Source of the DNA: Escherichia coli O157 typing phage 14
DNA: 64,000 nt
Sequence record: KP869112
Strand: one strand, 5' to 3'
In this document: piece after piece, positions 57,130-64,000 of the stretch
Layout of the letters: every line of letters begins with the position of its first letter
Numbering within the stretch: position 1 is the first letter of the stretch
Position numbers and translations under genes: made by a program
The notes under the pieces: model-generated
What the model was told of the DNA's origin: nothing
Database searches by the model: none
Seen by the model: the letters and a program-made list of their open reading frames with translations, nothing else

Positions 57130-57157
57130 GGGAGGCTTGCGCCTCCCTTTTCCTTTT
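57130..57157 (+). terminator. rho-independent terminator
   Basis: Stem GGGAGGC/GCCTCCC with loop TTGC followed by TTTTCCTTTT. Confidence 0.6.
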
Positions 57158-57166
57158 GGAGGCACT

Positions 57167-57985
57167 TTGAGCAAGAAAGAGTCCAACGACAAATATTACA
57201 CAAACCCTGAGTATGCAGAATATCTTGTTGGTAAAGTAAAAGATAACTATGGGAATTGTGCATACGTTGAGCCCTCTGCTGGGAGGGGTTCTTTTTCAAA
57301 ACTATTTTCAGAGATACTGTCGTACGATTTAGTACCAGATCCTGAATTTGAAGGGCCAACACCGTGCATTCAGGCAAACTTCTTGGAGGTGCACCCCAAG
57401 GCAGATGTCTTCATAGGTAACCCACCATTTGGCAAGAATTCATCTTTAGCTTGCAAATTCTTCAACCATTGTGCATCATTGCTAGAGCTTGGAGGGGCCA
57501 TAGCCTTCATCTTGCCACGGACATTTGAAAAAATATTTTTTGCAAACAAATTGGACATGTCGATGCACCTTGTCTACAGCGAAAGGTGCCCTAAGAATTC
57601 GTTTTTACTTAATGGCAAACCTTATGACGTGCCGTGTGTTTTCCAAATTTGGGAGAAAAAGGCGTGTAATAGGGATCCTGTAGAGATTGGAGAGAATAAG
57701 TTATTTTCTTTTAGCACTCCAGATGACTACGACTTCTGTGTAAGACGTGTTGGGTATAATGCTGGAAAAGTATTGGGGGATGATGACCCAAAATCTGAAG
57801 AATCGACATATTTCATAAAATCTTTAGTTGACGGTGTTGACAGAGTGTTTGCTGAATGCTATTCTTCTTTTCAAGAAGAAGCAGGTAAGACTGCCGGAAT
57901 GAAGAGTATAGGCAAGAAAGAACTACAATACATTTTGGAGACCAGGTATGATCAAAAGCATAGACTTGACCAAAGAACTCACTGA
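57167..57985 (+). CDS. putative N6-adenine DNA methyltransferase (gamma-class, TaqI-like motif order)
   Basis: Motif I EPSAGRGSF and motif IV FIGNPPFG; start moved to TTG at 57167 (RBS GGAGG) because the track start at 57137 lies in the terminator loop. Confidence 0.5.
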   Translation: MSKKESNDKYYTNPEYAEYLVGKVKDNYGNCAYVEPSAGRGSFSKLFSEILSYDLVPDPEFEGPTPCIQANFLEVHPKADVFIGNPPFGKNSSLACKFFNHCASLLELGGAIAFILPRTFEKIFFANKLDMSMHLVYSERCPKNSFLLNGKPYDVPCVFQIWEKKACNRDPVEIGENKLFSFSTPDDYDFCVRRVGYNAGKVLGDDDPKSEESTYFIKSLVDGVDRVFAECYSSFQEEAGKTAGMKSIGKKELQYILETRYDQKHRLDQRTH

Positions 57986-58406
57986 TGCGAAAGCTTTTGG
58001 TGAGACAGCGGTACAAAGGGGGCAGGCAATGGGACTGGCACTACCTTTCGTCTTAAAAGAGCACTTTACAGATTTTCAACTTATCAAGGGCGATAAGGGA
58101 ATGCTTATCCTGGAGCATAAGTTGAGTAAGAAACGCTACAAAGTTGTTTTTAATTCTAAAGCCCCAACAAAACTTGGATTCAGAACTTACAATCTCAACC
58201 CATCCTATACTAAGGGTGTTGGAAGGGTAGAACAACAGCATTTCAGTGCTAGAGCTTCTTTAGCCCCTTTGATGCTAAATTTCTCAGGGGTGGCTTTAGG
58301 ATACCTTGATAAGAAAAGAGTTCTTCATGTCCGTTTCACAGACTTTGTAACGCTTTTAGCTAACAACGAAGTTGATGAAAAGGGACGTGTAAAAACAAAC
58401 TTCTAA
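57948..58406 (+). CDS. hypothetical protein
   Basis: 152 aa; RBS GGAGACC; overlaps the methyltransferase 3' end. Confidence 0.35.
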   Translation: MIKSIDLTKELTDAKAFGETAVQRGQAMGLALPFVLKEHFTDFQLIKGDKGMLILEHKLSKKRYKVVFNSKAPTKLGFRTYNLNPSYTKGVGRVEQQHFSARASLAPLMLNFSGVALGYLDKKRVLHVRFTDFVTLLANNEVDEKGRVKTNF

Positions 58407-58433
58407 TAACGCATGGTATGATTGGAGACCACA

Positions 58434-58625
58434 ATGACACTAAAGTTAACAATTCCAGACAGTTTTTCAGAAAACTTTATCCCAGAAATGATGGGTAAGA
58501 TGCGATCATTGCTTGATCAGATTGAGGAAGCTGTTTGGGGAGACGATGCTGTAGTGGCTAACGAGCTGGTAGATAAGTGTAAAAGTATTATTGATGCAGT
58601 TGAAGAATACCACGGAGGTTTTTGA
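58434..58625 (+). CDS. hypothetical small acidic protein
   Basis: ATG at 58434 (MTLKLTIP) with RBS GGAGACC. Confidence 0.3.
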   Translation: MTLKLTIPDSFSENFIPEMMGKMRSLLDQIEEAVWGDDAVVANELVDKCKSIIDAVEEYHGGF

Positions 58626-59239
58626 TGGATATTATTGTTCTTAACGCCCCACCCAGCAGTGGTAAGGATCACATTGCAGATCTCTTGTTGGAAGCTATTC
58701 CTAACTCACACCACCGTGAGGTTAAGGAGATGCTCTTCAGCGTGGCAATTAAGGCAGCTGGTGTAACTCCTCAACTCTGGAATGCACTTTATGACCGCCA
58801 CTACAAAGAAGAGCCTTGCCCTTTCTTAATGATAGACGGCAAGCATGTTTCTCCGCGAGAATGGATGATCCATTGTAGTGAAAATCTGATTAAACCTATC
58901 TTTGGTGAAGATGCTTTCGGTAAGGCCGCAGTCACATCCTTGAAGAAAGATTTCCCTAAAGGTAAAGGGGTTGTTGTTTACTCCGATGGTGGATTCAAAG
59001 AGGAGCTGGCATGCCTTAGCGAGTACGCATACAGCACAGGTGGAGATCTGTTGTTGTTCCGTATTCACCGTGTCGGATATGACTGGGGAAATGATTCCAG
59101 AACCTATCTAAGTCTGGAAAAGAACGGAATAAAAGGGATTGAGTTCGATGTTGTAAACCCTGAAGGTGCACCTTGGGAGTGTGCATCGGAGATTGTGTGC
59201 AAGTATATTGATGCTAAAGAGGCCCAAGAAGAATGTTAA
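58625..59239 (+). CDS. P-loop (deoxy)nucleotide kinase-like protein
   Basis: N-terminal IVLNAPPSSGKDHIADLL resembles the glycine-rich loop of phage dNMP kinases (T4 gp1 type, from memory); ATG at 58625 with RBS GGAGG. Confidence 0.45.
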   Translation: MDIIVLNAPPSSGKDHIADLLLEAIPNSHHREVKEMLFSVAIKAAGVTPQLWNALYDRHYKEEPCPFLMIDGKHVSPREWMIHCSENLIKPIFGEDAFGKAAVTSLKKDFPKGKGVVVYSDGGFKEELACLSEYAYSTGGDLLLFRIHRVGYDWGNDSRTYLSLEKNGIKGIEFDVVNPEGAPWECASEIVCKYIDAKEAQEEC

Positions 59240-59826
59240 TCGGAATTGATGTAGATTTGACACTGGTAGATTCAGGAACAGCATGGTGGGAGTGGTTGGA
59301 GCGTTTGTATGGTCCAGCCAGTAAGACAGTCGCTAAACCTTCTAATGGACTGATGTATTACGATCTGTCAAAGTATTGGCCTGATCGCCCCAAAGAAAAC
59401 ATCATAGGGCCTTTTGATTTCTGGAGTGACCCATTCCTCTACGACTTTCTTAAGCCTGAAGAGGGGGCTATTGAGGTTATGAAAGATTTGGTGGCTCGTG
59501 GTCACAAGCTTGCATTTATCTCGGTATGCAAGAAAGGTCACCTTGCATCTAAATCAAGGTTCTTAAAGCGTTGGACCAGTGATTTTATGGATCTGGACGA
59601 TCACACCCAGGGTCACGGCTTCTACGCCACACATTTCAAAGGAAATGTGGCTGTAGATGTTATAATTGACGACAGGCATGAATACCTTAACCAATTCGCT
59701 TCACGACCTGAAGTTATTAAAATCCTAAAAGATACGCCTTATGAGCAATTCGAGGAGTTAAAGGTCAGTGTTGACTATACCGCTAATAGTTGGTATAAAA
59801 TAGGAAAGTTTTTAGAAGGTATTTGA
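59233..59826 (+). CDS. HAD-family phosphatase, 5'(3')-deoxyribonucleotidase-like
   Basis: HAD motif I IGIDVDLTL (DxDxT) and motif IV VIIDD. Confidence 0.55.
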   Translation: MLIGIDVDLTLVDSGTAWWEWLERLYGPASKTVAKPSNGLMYYDLSKYWPDRPKENIIGPFDFWSDPFLYDFLKPEEGAIEVMKDLVARGHKLAFISVCKKGHLASKSRFLKRWTSDFMDLDDHTQGHGFYATHFKGNVAVDVIIDDRHEYLNQFASRPEVIKILKDTPYEQFEELKVSVDYTANSWYKIGKFLEGI

Positions 59827-59827
59827 A

Positions 59828-60028
59828 ATGGGCAGATGTTCTAAAGGTGGCGATCCTGTAGTCAGATACGGTGACTGGCTGGAGGTATATGATCTGGGGG
59901 GTAAGCTAGTGTATGCCTCCAGGATCACCCAAGATATGTGCTCTGATATGTTTAACAGATACCTTGCATTTAAGGCCAATATAAACCCAGACGAAATTTC
60001 CAAAATTAAAACAAGGAGAGCTAAATAA
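59828..60028 (+). CDS. hypothetical protein
   Basis: 66 aa ORF packed between neighbours. Confidence 0.3.
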   Translation: MGRCSKGGDPVVRYGDWLEVYDLGGKLVYASRITQDMCSDMFNRYLAFKANINPDEISKIKTRRAK

Positions 60029-61011
60029 TGCTAAAACTGTGCACTGCAAAGATCATTGCTGACAGCATTTCCGAGAAAGGTAAGCGTATCACCACTTTTG
60101 AACTAGAGTATCCTCGAATTATTCACTCAGAGCTTATGACGCACCGAGTATTCAGCCGAAACGCCATGTCTTCCCGTGCAGTGCCTGTCGGCAAGATGCT
60201 GCAGCAGATTGTGGAGAATCCGGCAATGCCAGTTCGCTTCGGTGTAAATAAGCGAGGGATGGAAGATGGTGGGGAACACGATCAAAAGATCCGTGTAGAG
60301 TACACTGACATGGAGCTAACCCCTGAAGAGTTTTGGAAAGAAGCTGCAAAAAACGCCGCTTGGCATGCAGAGAAGTTCGCCCTTGCTGGTTACCATAAAC
60401 AAGTATGTAACCGCTTAGTGGAGCCGTTTCAGCGCATGAAAACAGTTGTAACAAGCACAGAGTGGAATAATTTTTTCCATCTCCGTTGCTGGCACGATGC
60501 GGATCCTACGATTCAGATGTTGGCTAATTGTATGTGGGAAGCTCTTGTGAATAGCACTCCTGAAATCCTTAAACCAGGTCAATGGCACACTCCATATGTA
60601 GAGCACGTTTATTTGGACGGAGAGTTTAACTACGCTGTACGTGACACAGAAGGAAAGCTCTGCATTCTTGATACTAAAGAAGCTCTGTCTATTAGTGCTA
60701 GTTGCTGTGCACAAGTATCTTATCGAAATATTGACAGCACGTTTGAAAAGGCAGACAGTGTGGCTAAAAAATTGATTGGTGGGGATCGTATTCATGCAAG
60801 CCCTTACGAACACCAGGCAACACCTATGGATCATGATAACGCAATGGAACGTTTAAACTACTACCTGTCTTCATGTGAAATCACACAAGACATTAGTACT
60901 TGGCAGGAAGGTGTAACCCATCAAGACCGTGATGGTAAATTCTGGTCTGCCAACTTTTGTGGGTGGGTTCAGCACAGACAACTGCTTAATAACCACTTCG
61001 TGAAAGGTTAA
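60028..61011 (+). CDS. thyX: ThyX-like flavin-dependent thymidylate synthase homolog with long C-terminal extension
   Basis: THRVFSRNAMSSR aligns with the ThyX RHRxxxxxxxSxR signature, and TEWNNFFHLRC with the ThyX NF..LR segment; 327 aa versus about 220-250 for typical ThyX. Confidence 0.55.
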   Translation: MLKLCTAKIIADSISEKGKRITTFELEYPRIIHSELMTHRVFSRNAMSSRAVPVGKMLQQIVENPAMPVRFGVNKRGMEDGGEHDQKIRVEYTDMELTPEEFWKEAAKNAAWHAEKFALAGYHKQVCNRLVEPFQRMKTVVTSTEWNNFFHLRCWHDADPTIQMLANCMWEALVNSTPEILKPGQWHTPYVEHVYLDGEFNYAVRDTEGKLCILDTKEALSISASCCAQVSYRNIDSTFEKADSVAKKLIGGDRIHASPYEHQATPMDHDNAMERLNYYLSSCEITQDISTWQEGVTHQDRDGKFWSANFCGWVQHRQLLNNHFVKG

Positions 61012-61040
61012 TCCTATCACAGCGATAGGTAACTTTTGTG

Positions 61041-61069
61041 TTGACTAATAGTATCAGATAATCTATAAT
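61041..61069 (+). promoter_or_regulatory. consensus sigma70 promoter TTGACT-N17-TATAAT
   Basis: -35 TTGACT 61041-61046, -10 TATAAT 61064-61069; followed by hairpin GGCTCAC-TTTGTTG-GTGAGCC (61073-61093). Confidence 0.55.
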
Positions 61070-61109
61070 AATGGCTCACTTTGTTGGTGAGCCAGAAATG
61101 GAGACAGAT

Positions 61110-61571
61110 ATGAGTAATGTTATGATTCCTAAAAAGACATTTATTTCAGTTACTTTAGATTTCCTAGCTACCGTCCCTGGGTTTAACGTTCGCACACGAA
61201 ACGGTCTCCGAGCTGCACTCTTCGCCGTAGGGTTTGATTTAAAAAATATTGATGTTCTTCGTGGAAAAAACGTTAGATGCAAAAATAAGCCAACCCATTA
61301 TCGAAAGGCAGATGTATTTGCTGGTGTCATGCGTGCAGACTTTAGATACCCACAAATGTATAACGGTGTAGATATTTTAGATGTAGATAAAGCACCTGGT
61401 GAGGCAATGCTTGTTCAAGATCTTCCGTATGATATCCCTGTAGAGGATCGTGTTAATGTAAGAAAGTATACAAAACAATCTGAAAAGGCTGAAGATATTC
61501 ATATTGTTGATGAACCTTTCAATTTTGAAGATCTGCATCGCCTAGAAAAATTATTCGGTATTGAAAGCTAA
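61110..61571 (+). CDS. hypothetical protein
   Basis: Start taken as ATG 61110 (MSNVMIPKK, RBS GGAGA) because the track start at 61071 lies immediately after the -10 box. Confidence 0.4.
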   Translation: MSNVMIPKKTFISVTLDFLATVPGFNVRTRNGLRAALFAVGFDLKNIDVLRGKNVRCKNKPTHYRKADVFAGVMRADFRYPQMYNGVDILDVDKAPGEAMLVQDLPYDIPVEDRVNVRKYTKQSEKAEDIHIVDEPFNFEDLHRLEKLFGIES

Positions 61572-61581
61572 GGTGGTGAAG

Positions 61582-61812
61582 ATGAGTCATAACTCCAAGT
61601 GGAAGGATCTTGGTTTTGCAAGTCGGGCAGAATATGTTGGCTGGCTTTGGTTCAACGGCCTGACAAACGATATTAAAATGTATGATGATGTTTATTATGA
61701 CGAGTATACAGGTAAAATTATAAATATCTCTGTAGAAGAGGATACCTTTGTCCAGCAAGATACTGATACCTGCCTTGATAAATACGTTAATGAAGTGGAG
61801 GAAGCAAATTGA
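61582..61812 (+). CDS. hypothetical protein
   Basis: ATG at 61582 with RBS AAGGTGG; 76 aa. Confidence 0.35.
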   Translation: MSHNSKWKDLGFASRAEYVGWLWFNGLTNDIKMYDDVYYDEYTGKIINISVEEDTFVQQDTDTCLDKYVNEVEEAN

Positions 61813-64000
61813 TCACCAAGGTAATTAAAAGCAACGGATGTGAAGTGGCATTCGATCCAGAACGTTTAAATAAGGCAGCTATTTTCGGTGACGACGGTAA
61901 CGGCAATTGGTCACACATTGCACTGGATGCATACAAACGACTGTATGATGGATGTACAACCAAAGAAGTTAACCAAGCTATCATAGACTCCTGTGTTAGC
62001 CGTAAAGACGAAGCACATTCCCGTATGGCTGGTCGTGTTCTTATTGGTCAGATTTATAAAGAGGCTTTTGGAGGGTTTACAAAGATCCCTTCCTTACCAT
62101 CCTTTTACAACGACATGGTTGAGAAAGGGTATTGGGAGGATATGGGTTATAGCTTTACCGAGTTAAACACTTTAGGCACGGTTATTGATCACAGTAAAGA
62201 TCTCGGTTATGGCTATGCAGTCCTTAAACAGTTTCGCGACAAATACGGGATCAAGGATACTCTTAAAGACACCTTGTTTGAATCTCCCCAGATGATGTTT
62301 ATGGGGATAGCAATGGCTGTCATGAAGAATATGCCGAAAGAACGTCGTATCAACGATGTTGTAAAATTATACACTTATCTGTCCGACTTAAAGATCAATG
62401 CCCCGACACCGTACTTAAACGGGCTGCGTACAGGTAAGACAGGGTATGCATCTTGTTGTGTAATAAAAGCTGATGATACAGCAAAATCTATTGGTGTGGC
62501 ACGTGAAGTTGCGTACACAATGACGGTTAACCAAGCAGGTATCGGCTACTATTTATCATCAAGATCTGCAGGCGATGGTGTTCGTGGTAACACTATTAAA
62601 CACATGGGTAAGATTCCATATTATCGAGGTATTGATGCTGGGGTTAAGGAGAACAGACAACAATCACGTGGCGGTTCTGCAACAGTATCATTCCTTGCAC
62701 TAGACCCGCAGATTGATGAGCTAATCCGTTTGAGAAACCCTATGACTGTTGCTTCAAAAAGAATCAACACCATGGACTACTCTATAGGTATTAATAGGTC
62801 GTTTATCAACCGTGTGGCTAAGAATTTAGATTGGATGCTTGTTTCTTATAAGCACGCGCCTCAACTGCATGAAGGTATCTTCACCATGTCTATGGAGGAG
62901 TTTGATGCAGAGGTTGATCGTATCGCTAAAGATGACAGTATTCCTAAAACATGGATCCGAGCTAGAGATCTTGCTGTTGAGCTGATCACGCAGCGTACCG
63001 AGGTGGGAAGACTGTACGTATACTGGACAGATGAGATGAATAGACATACACCTTTTAAAGATGTGATCTATTCAAGTAACCTGTGTGCAGAAATAGCCCT
63101 CCCGACAAAAGGCTATTCAGATATGCGTAATATCTTCAAGTACGATGTTGATGATGGTGAGGTTGCATTGTGCTTCCTGTCATCCCTTGTAGCTGGAAGG
63201 GTTACCCCAGAGGAGTATGAGGATGTTGCATACTACACGGTGCTTATGATTGACAATGTTATGGAAATCATGACATATCCGTATGAAAATATGGAGAGTA
63301 CTGTTAAAAAACGCAGATCCATCGGGGTTGGCCTTACCAATGTTGCACATTTTATTGCCAGCCACAAGGTTACTTACGGATCTCCTGAAAGTAAACAGCT
63401 TGTTCACGATCTTGCAGAACTTCACAGCTACAGCTTGCATAAGGCAAGTTTACGGTTGGCAAAAGAGCGTGGTGTCTGCGAGTGGATGCATAAGACAAAA
63501 TATCCAGAAGGTTGGTTACCAATCGACACCTATAACAAAGAGGTCGATAGCGTGGTGAAAGATCCTTCTCTTAAACAGGATTGGGAAGGGTTACGTAAAG
63601 AAATCATTGAAAATGGTGGGCTACGTAATAGCGTTCTTGAAGCATATATGCCTAATGAAAGCTCTTCGCTGGCAACAAACACCACTAACGGGGTCTATCC
63701 TGTCCGTGAGCACATTATCTTTAAAAAGTCGCCACAAGGGCAGGTGCTGTTTATCGTTCCTGACTATGATGAGTTGAAAGAGTATTACACTTCGGCTTGG
63801 GACGTTGATACTAACGACATGATCGATATGTATGCTGTGATTCAAAAATTCACAGGTCAGGCAATCAGCGCGGATTTGTACATAGACTACACCAAGTTGA
63901 AAGATGGTAAAATTTCAATGAAGGAGCAGCTAGGGTACCTTATCCGTGCCACTAAATTCGGGATGAAGACATGGTATTATTTAAACTCTAGGGTTGGTGC
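61809..64000 (+). CDS. nrdA: ribonucleoside-diphosphate reductase alpha subunit (class I NrdA), 3'-partial
   Basis: Manual translation from TTG at 61809 (RBS GGAGGA): ATP-cone-like N-terminus ITKVIKSNGCEVAFDPERLNKAA and active-site region SSNLCAEIALPT in frame; no stop before the window end, so it is absent from the ORF track. Confidence 0.8.
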   Translation, partial: MITKVIKSNGCEVAFDPERLNKAAIFGDDGNGNWSHIALDAYKRLYDGCTTKEVNQAIIDSCVSRKDEAHSRMAGRVLIGQIYKEAFGGFTKIPSLPSFYNDMVEKGYWEDMGYSFTELNTLGTVIDHSKDLGYGYAVLKQFRDKYGIKDTLKDTLFESPQMMFMGIAMAVMKNMPKERRINDVVKLYTYLSDLKINAPTPYLNGLRTGKTGYASCCVIKADDTAKSIGVAREVAYTMTVNQAGIGYYLSSRSAGDGVRGNTIKHMGKIPYYRGIDAGVKENRQQSRGGSATVSFLALDPQIDELIRLRNPMTVASKRINTMDYSIGINRSFINRVAKNLDWMLVSYKHAPQLHEGIFTMSMEEFDAEVDRIAKDDSIPKTWIRARDLAVELITQRTEVGRLYVYWTDEMNRHTPFKDVIYSSNLCAEIALPTKGYSDMRNIFKYDVDDGEVALCFLSSLVAGRVTPEEYEDVAYYTVLMIDNVMEIMTYPYENMESTVKKRRSIGVGLTNVAHFIASHKVTYGSPESKQLVHDLAELHSYSLHKASLRLAKERGVCEWMHKTKYPEGWLPIDTYNKEVDSVVKDPSLKQDWEGLRKEIIENGGLRNSVLEAYMPNESSSLATNTTNGVYPVREHIIFKKSPQGQVLFIVPDYDELKEYYTSAWDVDTNDMIDMYAVIQKFTGQAISADLYIDYTKLKDGKISMKEQLGYLIRATKFGMKTWYYLNSRVG

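Follow-up and report, generated by a model that had tools for sequence, protein, structure and literature searches.

The 64,000-nucleotide stretch of Escherichia coli O157 typing phage 14 DNA analysed here (record KP869112; called the window below, whose positions are used throughout, features lying on its + strand unless another is given) carries at 60028..61011 a complete open reading frame (ORF), with an ATG start and a stop codon, for a 327-residue protein of the ThyX family. The reading we propose, to which we give a probability of about 0.72, is that the gene product would be a working flavin-dependent thymidylate synthase from a phage-specific ThyX branch with a rearranged chain order, in which the core of the enzyme comes first and the module that opens the canonical proteins follows it in the C-terminal third. 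This proposal is carried by the ThyX fold, by the relocation of the module at the level of the sequence, by the pattern of residue conservation and by the genomic context. In the literature searched (open-access papers and bioRxiv), nothing specific was found on a permuted ThyX, on assays of phage ThyX proteins or on N4 gp30, and both the non-sequential topology and the family-wide THR...SSRA signature appear undescribed.

Results

The relationship with ThyX surfaced through Pfam, through the comparison of structures and through split profiles. The Pfam profile PF02511 (Thy1) matches residues 23-178 with its positions 60-190 (of 191) at 37.4 bits, for a gathering cut-off of 24.8, and it also matches 87 of 91 diverse relatives (E <= 0.01), while PHROG 85, 'thymidylate synthase', covers the full length of the protein with an E-value of 1.6e-112. 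An AlphaFold2 model built on a 37-sequence alignment (pLDDT 83.6, pTM 0.83) was compared by Foldseek with the PDB and with BFVD, and both agreed on a ThyX fold; as modelled, the core of the protein is a ThyX fold. No Thymidylat_synt or ThyA-family match was obtained in Pfam, in NCBIfam or in the structure comparison.

The order of the segments was established by hhalign against the ThyX of Thermotoga maritima (Tm; TM0449), the reference sequence being 100% identical to PDB 1kq4/1o26; the family alignment used for conservation holds 141 sequences from the representative search. Residues 15-180 of the phage protein align on Tm 55-201 (P 2.3e-5), and residues 214-272 (60667..60843) align on Tm 13-69 (P 1.1e-5), that is, on the canonical N-terminal module. 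Within this module, ISASCCAQVSYR lies on LSAVRAARVSFD, with the invariant S231 opposite Tm S30, and HASPYEH (residues 256-262, nt 60793-60813) lies on HETPFEH of Tm (53-59), with the invariant H256 opposite Tm H53, so that both Tm residues are kept. None of 200 shuffled Tm sequences reached the real score of 37.6, the shuffles giving 12.1 +/- 2.5 with a maximum of 25.7 (z ~10). A profile of the C-terminal part, run against 177,635 distinct PDB sequences, gave 11 matches (E up to 10), all of them to ThyX and in the same register; their single E-values are weak (0.19-1.6), yet ThyX is matched exclusively. Some relatives come nearer to the canonical AAR motif, an Arg being present at position 226 in 30 and at position 229 in 20 of the 141 sequences. 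Furthermore, HxSPxEH stands downstream of the xHR signature in all 232 relatives in which both motifs occur.

At the front of the chain, the model predicts a β-hairpin (residues 6-29, 60043..60114) whose strands, 6-15 and 20-29, are only 4 residues apart, whereas about 40 residues (helix1-helix2-HxSPFEH) occupy this place in canonical ThyX; by hhalign the second strand corresponds to β3 of Tm (59-67). In the canonical proteins (PF02511; Tm TM0449, Mycobacterium tuberculosis Rv2754c, PBCV-1 A674R, Helicobacter pylori), the N-terminal helices and HxSPFEH precede the core and its RHR signature; this linear order is not the one found in the phage protein, where they come after. The C-terminal extension (residues 181-327, 60568..61008) comprises WHxPY, a β-rich insert, the relocated module and a conserved tail. 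The first-pass annotation of this DNA had put the extension at about 100 residues; it measures about 147, the whole protein being about 100 residues longer than canonical ThyX. That annotation had also listed the short N-terminus and the extension as separate oddities. Both are real, but hhalign, the shuffles and the PDB profile search make of them, at the sequence level, one single event, in which the module left the N-terminal end for a position after the core. As a consequence of this relocation into the extension, most of the catalytic elements are still present.

The model is less confident at residues 31-50 and 221-260, which correspond to segments that are flexible in the canonical enzyme: its active-site and folate loops and H53 (PMC11940539). 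A partial second ThyX copy, generated by tandem duplication, was considered for the C-terminal third and is no more than an idea, the comparison of the C-part with the N-part profile being not significant (P 0.23). The best local match of the tail, NFCGWVQHRQ on VARQWFRHR of Tm (72-88), is not significant either (P 0.28).

The active-site residues of Tm were mapped onto the phage protein in the gapless parts of the alignment only. The segment T38-H-R-V-F-S-R-N-A-M-S-S-R-A51 (60139..60180) is the family form of the canonical RHRxxSxNxxSxRY signature, and the first-pass annotation, which had described a ThyX-like protein with a divergent signature and a Thr for its first Arg, was correct on this point; the divergence is family-wide, T...A occupying the canonical R78/Y91 positions in 238 of the 242 motif instances among the relatives. 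The rest of the signature aligns without gaps, Tm H79, R80, S83, N85, S88 and R90 being kept as H39 (140/141), R40 (117/141), S43, N45, S48 (139/141) and R50 (invariant, 140/141). Further along the core, H123-K-Q-V-C-N-R129 (60394..60414) places the invariant R129 on Tm R147 and contains the invariant K124, and N147-N-F-F-H-L-R153 (60466..60486) places the invariant N148 and R153 on Tm N169 and R174. Among the replaced positions, Tm Q75 has become E35 and R165 has become T144, the other replacements being taken up in the Discussion.

The meaning of this pattern comes from the characterised enzymes. In Tm ThyX, S30 and S88 bind the flavin O4, H53 stacks on the flavin or the folate, R78 is directed at N1/C2=O of the reduced flavin and stabilises FADH-, and Y91 forms a hydrogen bond with H53, its mutation slowing flavin oxidation about 1000-fold (PMC11940539). 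In PolB, R166 is a ligand of the dUMP phosphate and R193 binds the uracil O2 (PMC5003785); from their position in the chain, these would be Tm R147 and R174, and the other PolB-Tm equivalences were derived from a fixed offset around the signature. With these presumed equivalences, the PolB counterparts of Tm R90 and R174 bind uracil O4 and O2, those of S88, R147 and R74 bind the phosphate and those of R78 and E86 bind the ribose 3'-OH (PMC5003785). The predicted pocket is conserved where it would contact uracil and phosphate, but not on its ribose side, and two catalytic helper residues have been exchanged.

Three regions of the phage protein have no counterpart in canonical ThyX: the loop 64-98, the β insert 181-213 and the tail 263-327. 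The family-specific loop (60217..60321; consensus PAxPxxWGKNQxGMQA, with G77 and M78 invariant) is gapped in hhalign and replaces a shorter stretch after the canonical active-site loop. An invariant WHxPY (H187, P189) is part of the C-terminal extension, and the conserved part of the tail, G295-x-T-H-x-D...W-S-x-N-F-x-G-W-x-Q-x-R317-Q (60910..60981), contains the invariant R317, together with N309 and Q315 in more than 95% of the sequences. Invariant or nearly invariant residues that the canonical enzymes lack are R30, K124, G77-M78, H187/P189 and N309/Q315/R317. Among them R30, K124, H187 and R317 are candidates that may compensate for the lost R78, R74 and Y91, the tail being a candidate source of the missing basic residue.

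The rearranged protein is widespread among phages. The representative search (E up to 1e-3) returned 5031 clusters at 50% identity, mostly of 290-345 residues and matched over their full length, and tblastn found 1035 phage records, 981 of which span 80% or more of the query; among them are Vequintavirinae, Pakpunavirus, ICP1, N4-like phages ('N4 gp30-like') and phages of Caulobacter, Stenotrophomonas and Flavobacterium. A pattern-limited scan of 185,579 bacterial and archaeal species genomes, one per species, gave only 17 loci, mostly on contigs of metagenome-assembled genomes, and the branch looks phage-specific. When cellular genomes with a rearranged ThyX as sole thymidylate synthase were sought, the outcome was these same 17 loci, which may be of phage origin.

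The relatives of about 630-650 residues, considered at one point to be tandem ThyX duplications, are in fact single enzymes interrupted by inteins. Such inteins (Intein_splicing with HNH or LAGLIDADG) are found in 16 relatives of 520-680 residues, all outside the window (P0126, P0132, P0138, P0147, P0154, P0155, P0161, P0179, P0201, P0213, P0215-P0217, P0236, P0245 and P0253); the gene of the window has none. Their five insertion sites all fall in conserved motifs: after H33, after THR40, in SS|SR, after LRxH and in H256|ASPFEH. Inteins characteristically reside in functionally critical motifs of active enzymes of replication and nucleotide metabolism, and the insertion in H256|ASPFEH gives independent support to the relocated His motif as a working part of the site.

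The neighbourhood of the relatives was also inspected. In an N4-like coliphage, a dCTP deaminase lies 1.5 kb upstream, and in Pakpunavirus K8 and in ICP1 the relative lies beside or near ribonucleotide reductase (RNR) genes; in N4-like roseophages it is paired with a dCMP deaminase (PMC2784036). No conserved small downstream partner was found: the 114-residue gene of K8 has no counterpart in rV5, ICP1 or the N4-like phages. This gene of Pseudomonas phage K8 (K8_128, L023:5956-6297, phrog_3506), directly downstream of the homologue, is annotated 'thymidylate synthase'; it has no significant similarity to the downstream gene of rV5 and is far too small for ThyA or ThyX, which makes its annotation doubtful. 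In Escherichia phage vB_EcoM-ECP26, the ThyX gene is annotated as two 'thymidylate synthase' proteins, A0A4Y5TVX3 (245 residues) and A0A4Y5TVY4 (97 residues), in BFVD; both pieces are 96% identical to the query, and a frameshift or a sequencing error is probably responsible.

The window comes from an rV5-like Vequintavirus genome: over the 3.4 kb surrounding the ThyX gene, identity is 99.7% with Escherichia phage FFH2 and 99.4% with rV5. The counterpart in rV5 is gp102 / ORF106, which RefSeq annotates as 'FAD-dependent thymidylate synthase' and which the rV5 genome paper names 'thymidylate synthase (gp106)' (PMC3606486). The ThyX gene is the last of a translationally coupled run that contains the genes for a deoxynucleoside monophosphate (dNMP) kinase-like P-loop protein (58622..59239; phrog_139, E 2.6e-44, no match in Pfam), for a HAD-type 5'(3')-deoxyribonucleotidase-like protein (NT5C; 59233..59826; Pfam PF06941 at 27.1 bits for a cut-off of 24.8, phrog_420) and for a small conserved protein of 66 residues (59828..60028; phrog_4903, to which no function is assigned). 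The ATG of the ThyX gene overlaps the stop codon of this small ORF (TAATG), which indicates that the two are translationally coupled, and a Shine-Dalgarno sequence, AAGGAG (60013..60018), read directly from the DNA, precedes the ATG with a 9-nt spacer. Downstream, a hairpin (61013-61029) and a strong σ70-like promoter (61041-61069; 11/12 matches; promoter P106 of rV5) show where the transcription unit with the ThyX gene ends.

Beyond this promoter lie two small ORFs and then nrdA, for the large subunit of class I RNR (61809..64000; a 730-codon open frame truncated by the window end, identified from the annotation of rV5 gp105), after which the gene order in rV5 is nrdB, a glutaredoxin gene, nrdD and nrdG. 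The 327-residue ORF and its cluster with a dNMP kinase-like protein, a HAD nucleotidase and NrdA, as the first-pass annotation had described them, are confirmed by the ORF itself, Pfam, PHROG and the rV5 annotation. That annotation lists no ThyA, dihydrofolate reductase, dCMP deaminase or dUTPase anywhere in rV5, and no downstream hypermodification genes adjoin the ThyX gene. With RNR and the dNMP kinase as neighbours, and with dCTP/dCMP deaminases in the relatives, the context is that of dTTP supply.

Other features of the window and of related records

A putative N6-adenine DNA methyltransferase is encoded 2 kb upstream of the ThyX gene (57137-57985, +; phrog_5172/phrog_799), and the rV5 annotation contains at least five further DNA methyltransferases, though the subfamily is reported to be highly sensitive to restriction. 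Some 19-24 'Campylobacter phage' records (GenBank MG065644-MG065690, host C. jejuni), several of them of odd length (35-75 kb), show 98% DNA identity to positions 58600-62000; this looks like mislabelling or contamination and not like a true Campylobacter host.

Elsewhere in the window, seven tRNA genes (Pro, Met, Thr, Ser, Tyr, Arg) are clustered at 41776-42588 on the - strand, among which one call of 99 nt (42021-42119) has an odd 4-base anticodon (atcc); the rV5 record has six tRNAs only and none at that place. The gene for the terminase large subunit of rV5 consists of three joined pieces with an HNH endonuclease ORF inside (rV5 58027-60872, about 37900-40750 of the window, - strand), which suggests self-splicing introns or another intervening element. 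At about 46-47 kb of the window (rV5 ~66.7 kb), the GC skew turns from negative (about -0.1) to positive (about +0.13), at the same place where leftward genes for structural proteins and tRNAs give way to rightward genes of replication and nucleotide metabolism.

Discussion

In the model we propose, the chain would begin with the core (strand, helix 3, signature loop, the R147/R174 equivalents and the C-terminal helix) and would continue with the relocated module, i.e. helix 1 with its flavin-O4 serine, helix 2 and the HxSPFEH histidine that would stack on flavin and folate, before ending with the family-specific tail. The enzyme would take deoxyuridine monophosphate (dUMP), transfer the methylene group of methylenetetrahydrofolate (CH2-H4folate) to it via the reduced flavin and release dTMP and H4folate. 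The dUMP would be provided by phage or host deamination of dCTP/dCMP and by nucleotide pyrophosphohydrolases, the dTMP would be phosphorylated by the adjacent dNMP kinase-like protein, and the neighbouring RNR would supply the deoxynucleotides. Canonical ThyX is a homotetramer with bound FAD and with active sites to which three subunits contribute, and its dTMP synthesis depends on NAD(P)H and CH2-H4folate; for the phage protein, the enzyme activity, as well as the identity of the flavin and the oligomeric state, is what we infer.

Several points weigh against this proposal. In the active site, Tm R78 is replaced by a Thr in 96% of the family (T38) and Y91 by an invariant Ala (A51), E86 has given way to Ala/Ser (A46) and R74 to Ser/Ala (S34). 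The NCBIfam equivalog TIGR02170 scores the protein at 40 bits, below its cut-off of 87.9, and neither the full-length protein nor the 37-sequence profile matched a ThyX among the PDB sequences. Homology is the sole basis for placing the relocated module in its canonical three-dimensional position, which it would occupy in our model. The literature searched contained no work on the biochemistry, genetics or structure of any member of the branch. Finally, the host, E. coli, encodes its own ThyA, so that the biology of the infection does not force the assignment as a thymidylate synthase.

The protein could be a ThyX-fold flavoenzyme with another substrate or chemistry, for example methylation of UMP, dUDP or dUTP or, with an impaired reductive step, the release of 5-hydroxymethyl-dUMP; the equivalents of the ribose 3'-OH contacts (Tm R78 and E86) and of Y91 are gone. 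More broadly, a site remodelled by the loss of R78 and of the general acid Y91, by a changed ribose pocket and by the new H187, K124 and R317 might work by a different mechanism, with a different cofactor (FMN or another reductant) or towards a different substrate or product, in which case calling it a 'thymidylate synthase' would be incorrect, at least in part. We regard the first of these possibilities as unlikely and the second, broader one as improbable too. R50 and R153, which correspond to the Arg residues that recognise uracil, are invariant, as are S48 and R129 at the positions of the phosphate ligands, and the genes around encode functions of dTTP supply (dCTP/dCMP deaminase, RNR, dNMP kinase), with no downstream hypermodification genes next to the ThyX gene. 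The family is also present in many well-studied phages (N4-like, ICP1, Pakpunavirus), whose DNA is ordinary. As for the Vequintavirinae themselves, they are reported to be 'exceptionally susceptible' to restriction-modification systems (BASEL, PMC8594841), which argues against a bulk modification of their bases, and the known source of the 5-hydroxymethyl pyrimidines of hypermodifying phages is of the ThyA type and not ThyX (PMC8989533). The suggestion of the first-pass annotation that the enzyme might act on another pyrimidine thus finds no support. The phage protein also differs from PolB, the C5-methylase of UMP/dUMP in polyoxin biosynthesis (PDB 4p5a), in which the order of the chain is canonical and the RHR...SxRY signature intact; PolB belongs to an antibiotic gene cluster, whereas the phage gene lies in a cluster for dNTP supply. 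The specificity of PolB depends on Loop 1, Loop 2 and Tyr99/124/126 (PMC5003785), and in the phage protein, with 16% identity to 4p5a, the equivalent of Tyr99 is A51, which speaks against the PolB type.

Two other explanations bear on the relocated module and on the catalytic competence of the protein. It could be an ordinary ThyX without its N-terminal helices, to which an unrelated accessory domain, serving for instance in regulation or oligomerisation, was added at the C-terminus, as the span of the Pfam and TIGRFAM models (residues 22-180 only), the absence of anything significant in Pfam for the C-terminal 150 residues alone and the lack of a detectable canonical counterpart for the β-rich insert and the tail would suggest. 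This is very unlikely: residues 214-272 are homologous, motif by motif, to the missing N-terminal module, the S30 and H53 equivalents are invariant, and the canonical flavin/folate site uses precisely H53 and S30 (PMC11940539), an enzyme without both being expected to be crippled. Just as unlikely is a catalytically dead relic that would have taken another role, in nucleotide binding, regulation or the scaffolding of a complex for dNTP synthesis. Two mechanistically important residues, R78 and Y91, are indeed gone, and the host has its ThyA; against this stand the strict conservation of the residues of the substrate and cofactor sites at an overall identity of 30-50%, the 5031 clusters, and the inteins in five conserved active-site motifs, a pattern of active enzymes. 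The working, rearranged thymidylate synthase thus remains the reading we prefer.

In phage genomes, ThyX shares its metabolic position with ThyA-type enzymes (T4 td, dCMP/dUMP hydroxymethylases), whose fold and mechanism are unrelated to those of the phage ThyX protein, and in jumbo phages ThyA and ThyX are anticorrelated (PMC7824862).

In conclusion, the ThyX annotation of the gene is years old, both for rV5 and for hundreds of other phages; what we did not find described is the non-sequential topology of this large phage branch and the systematic loss of R78 and Y91, two residues treated as conserved and important in current mechanistic work on Tm ThyX. The interest of these observations should be moderate for ThyX enzymologists and phage annotators, and they will hold little surprise for others. 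If the enzyme is active, it would be a natural experiment on the truly essential residues of ThyX, as well as an example of the relocation of a segment in an enzyme with an active site to which several subunits contribute. It could then inform the design of ThyX inhibitors and also profile-based annotation, because the equivalog models miss the rearranged family. If, on the other hand, it turns out to be something other than a plain thymidylate synthase, the current picture of nucleotide metabolism in the N4-like phages, ICP1, Pakpunavirus and the Vequintavirinae would need revision.

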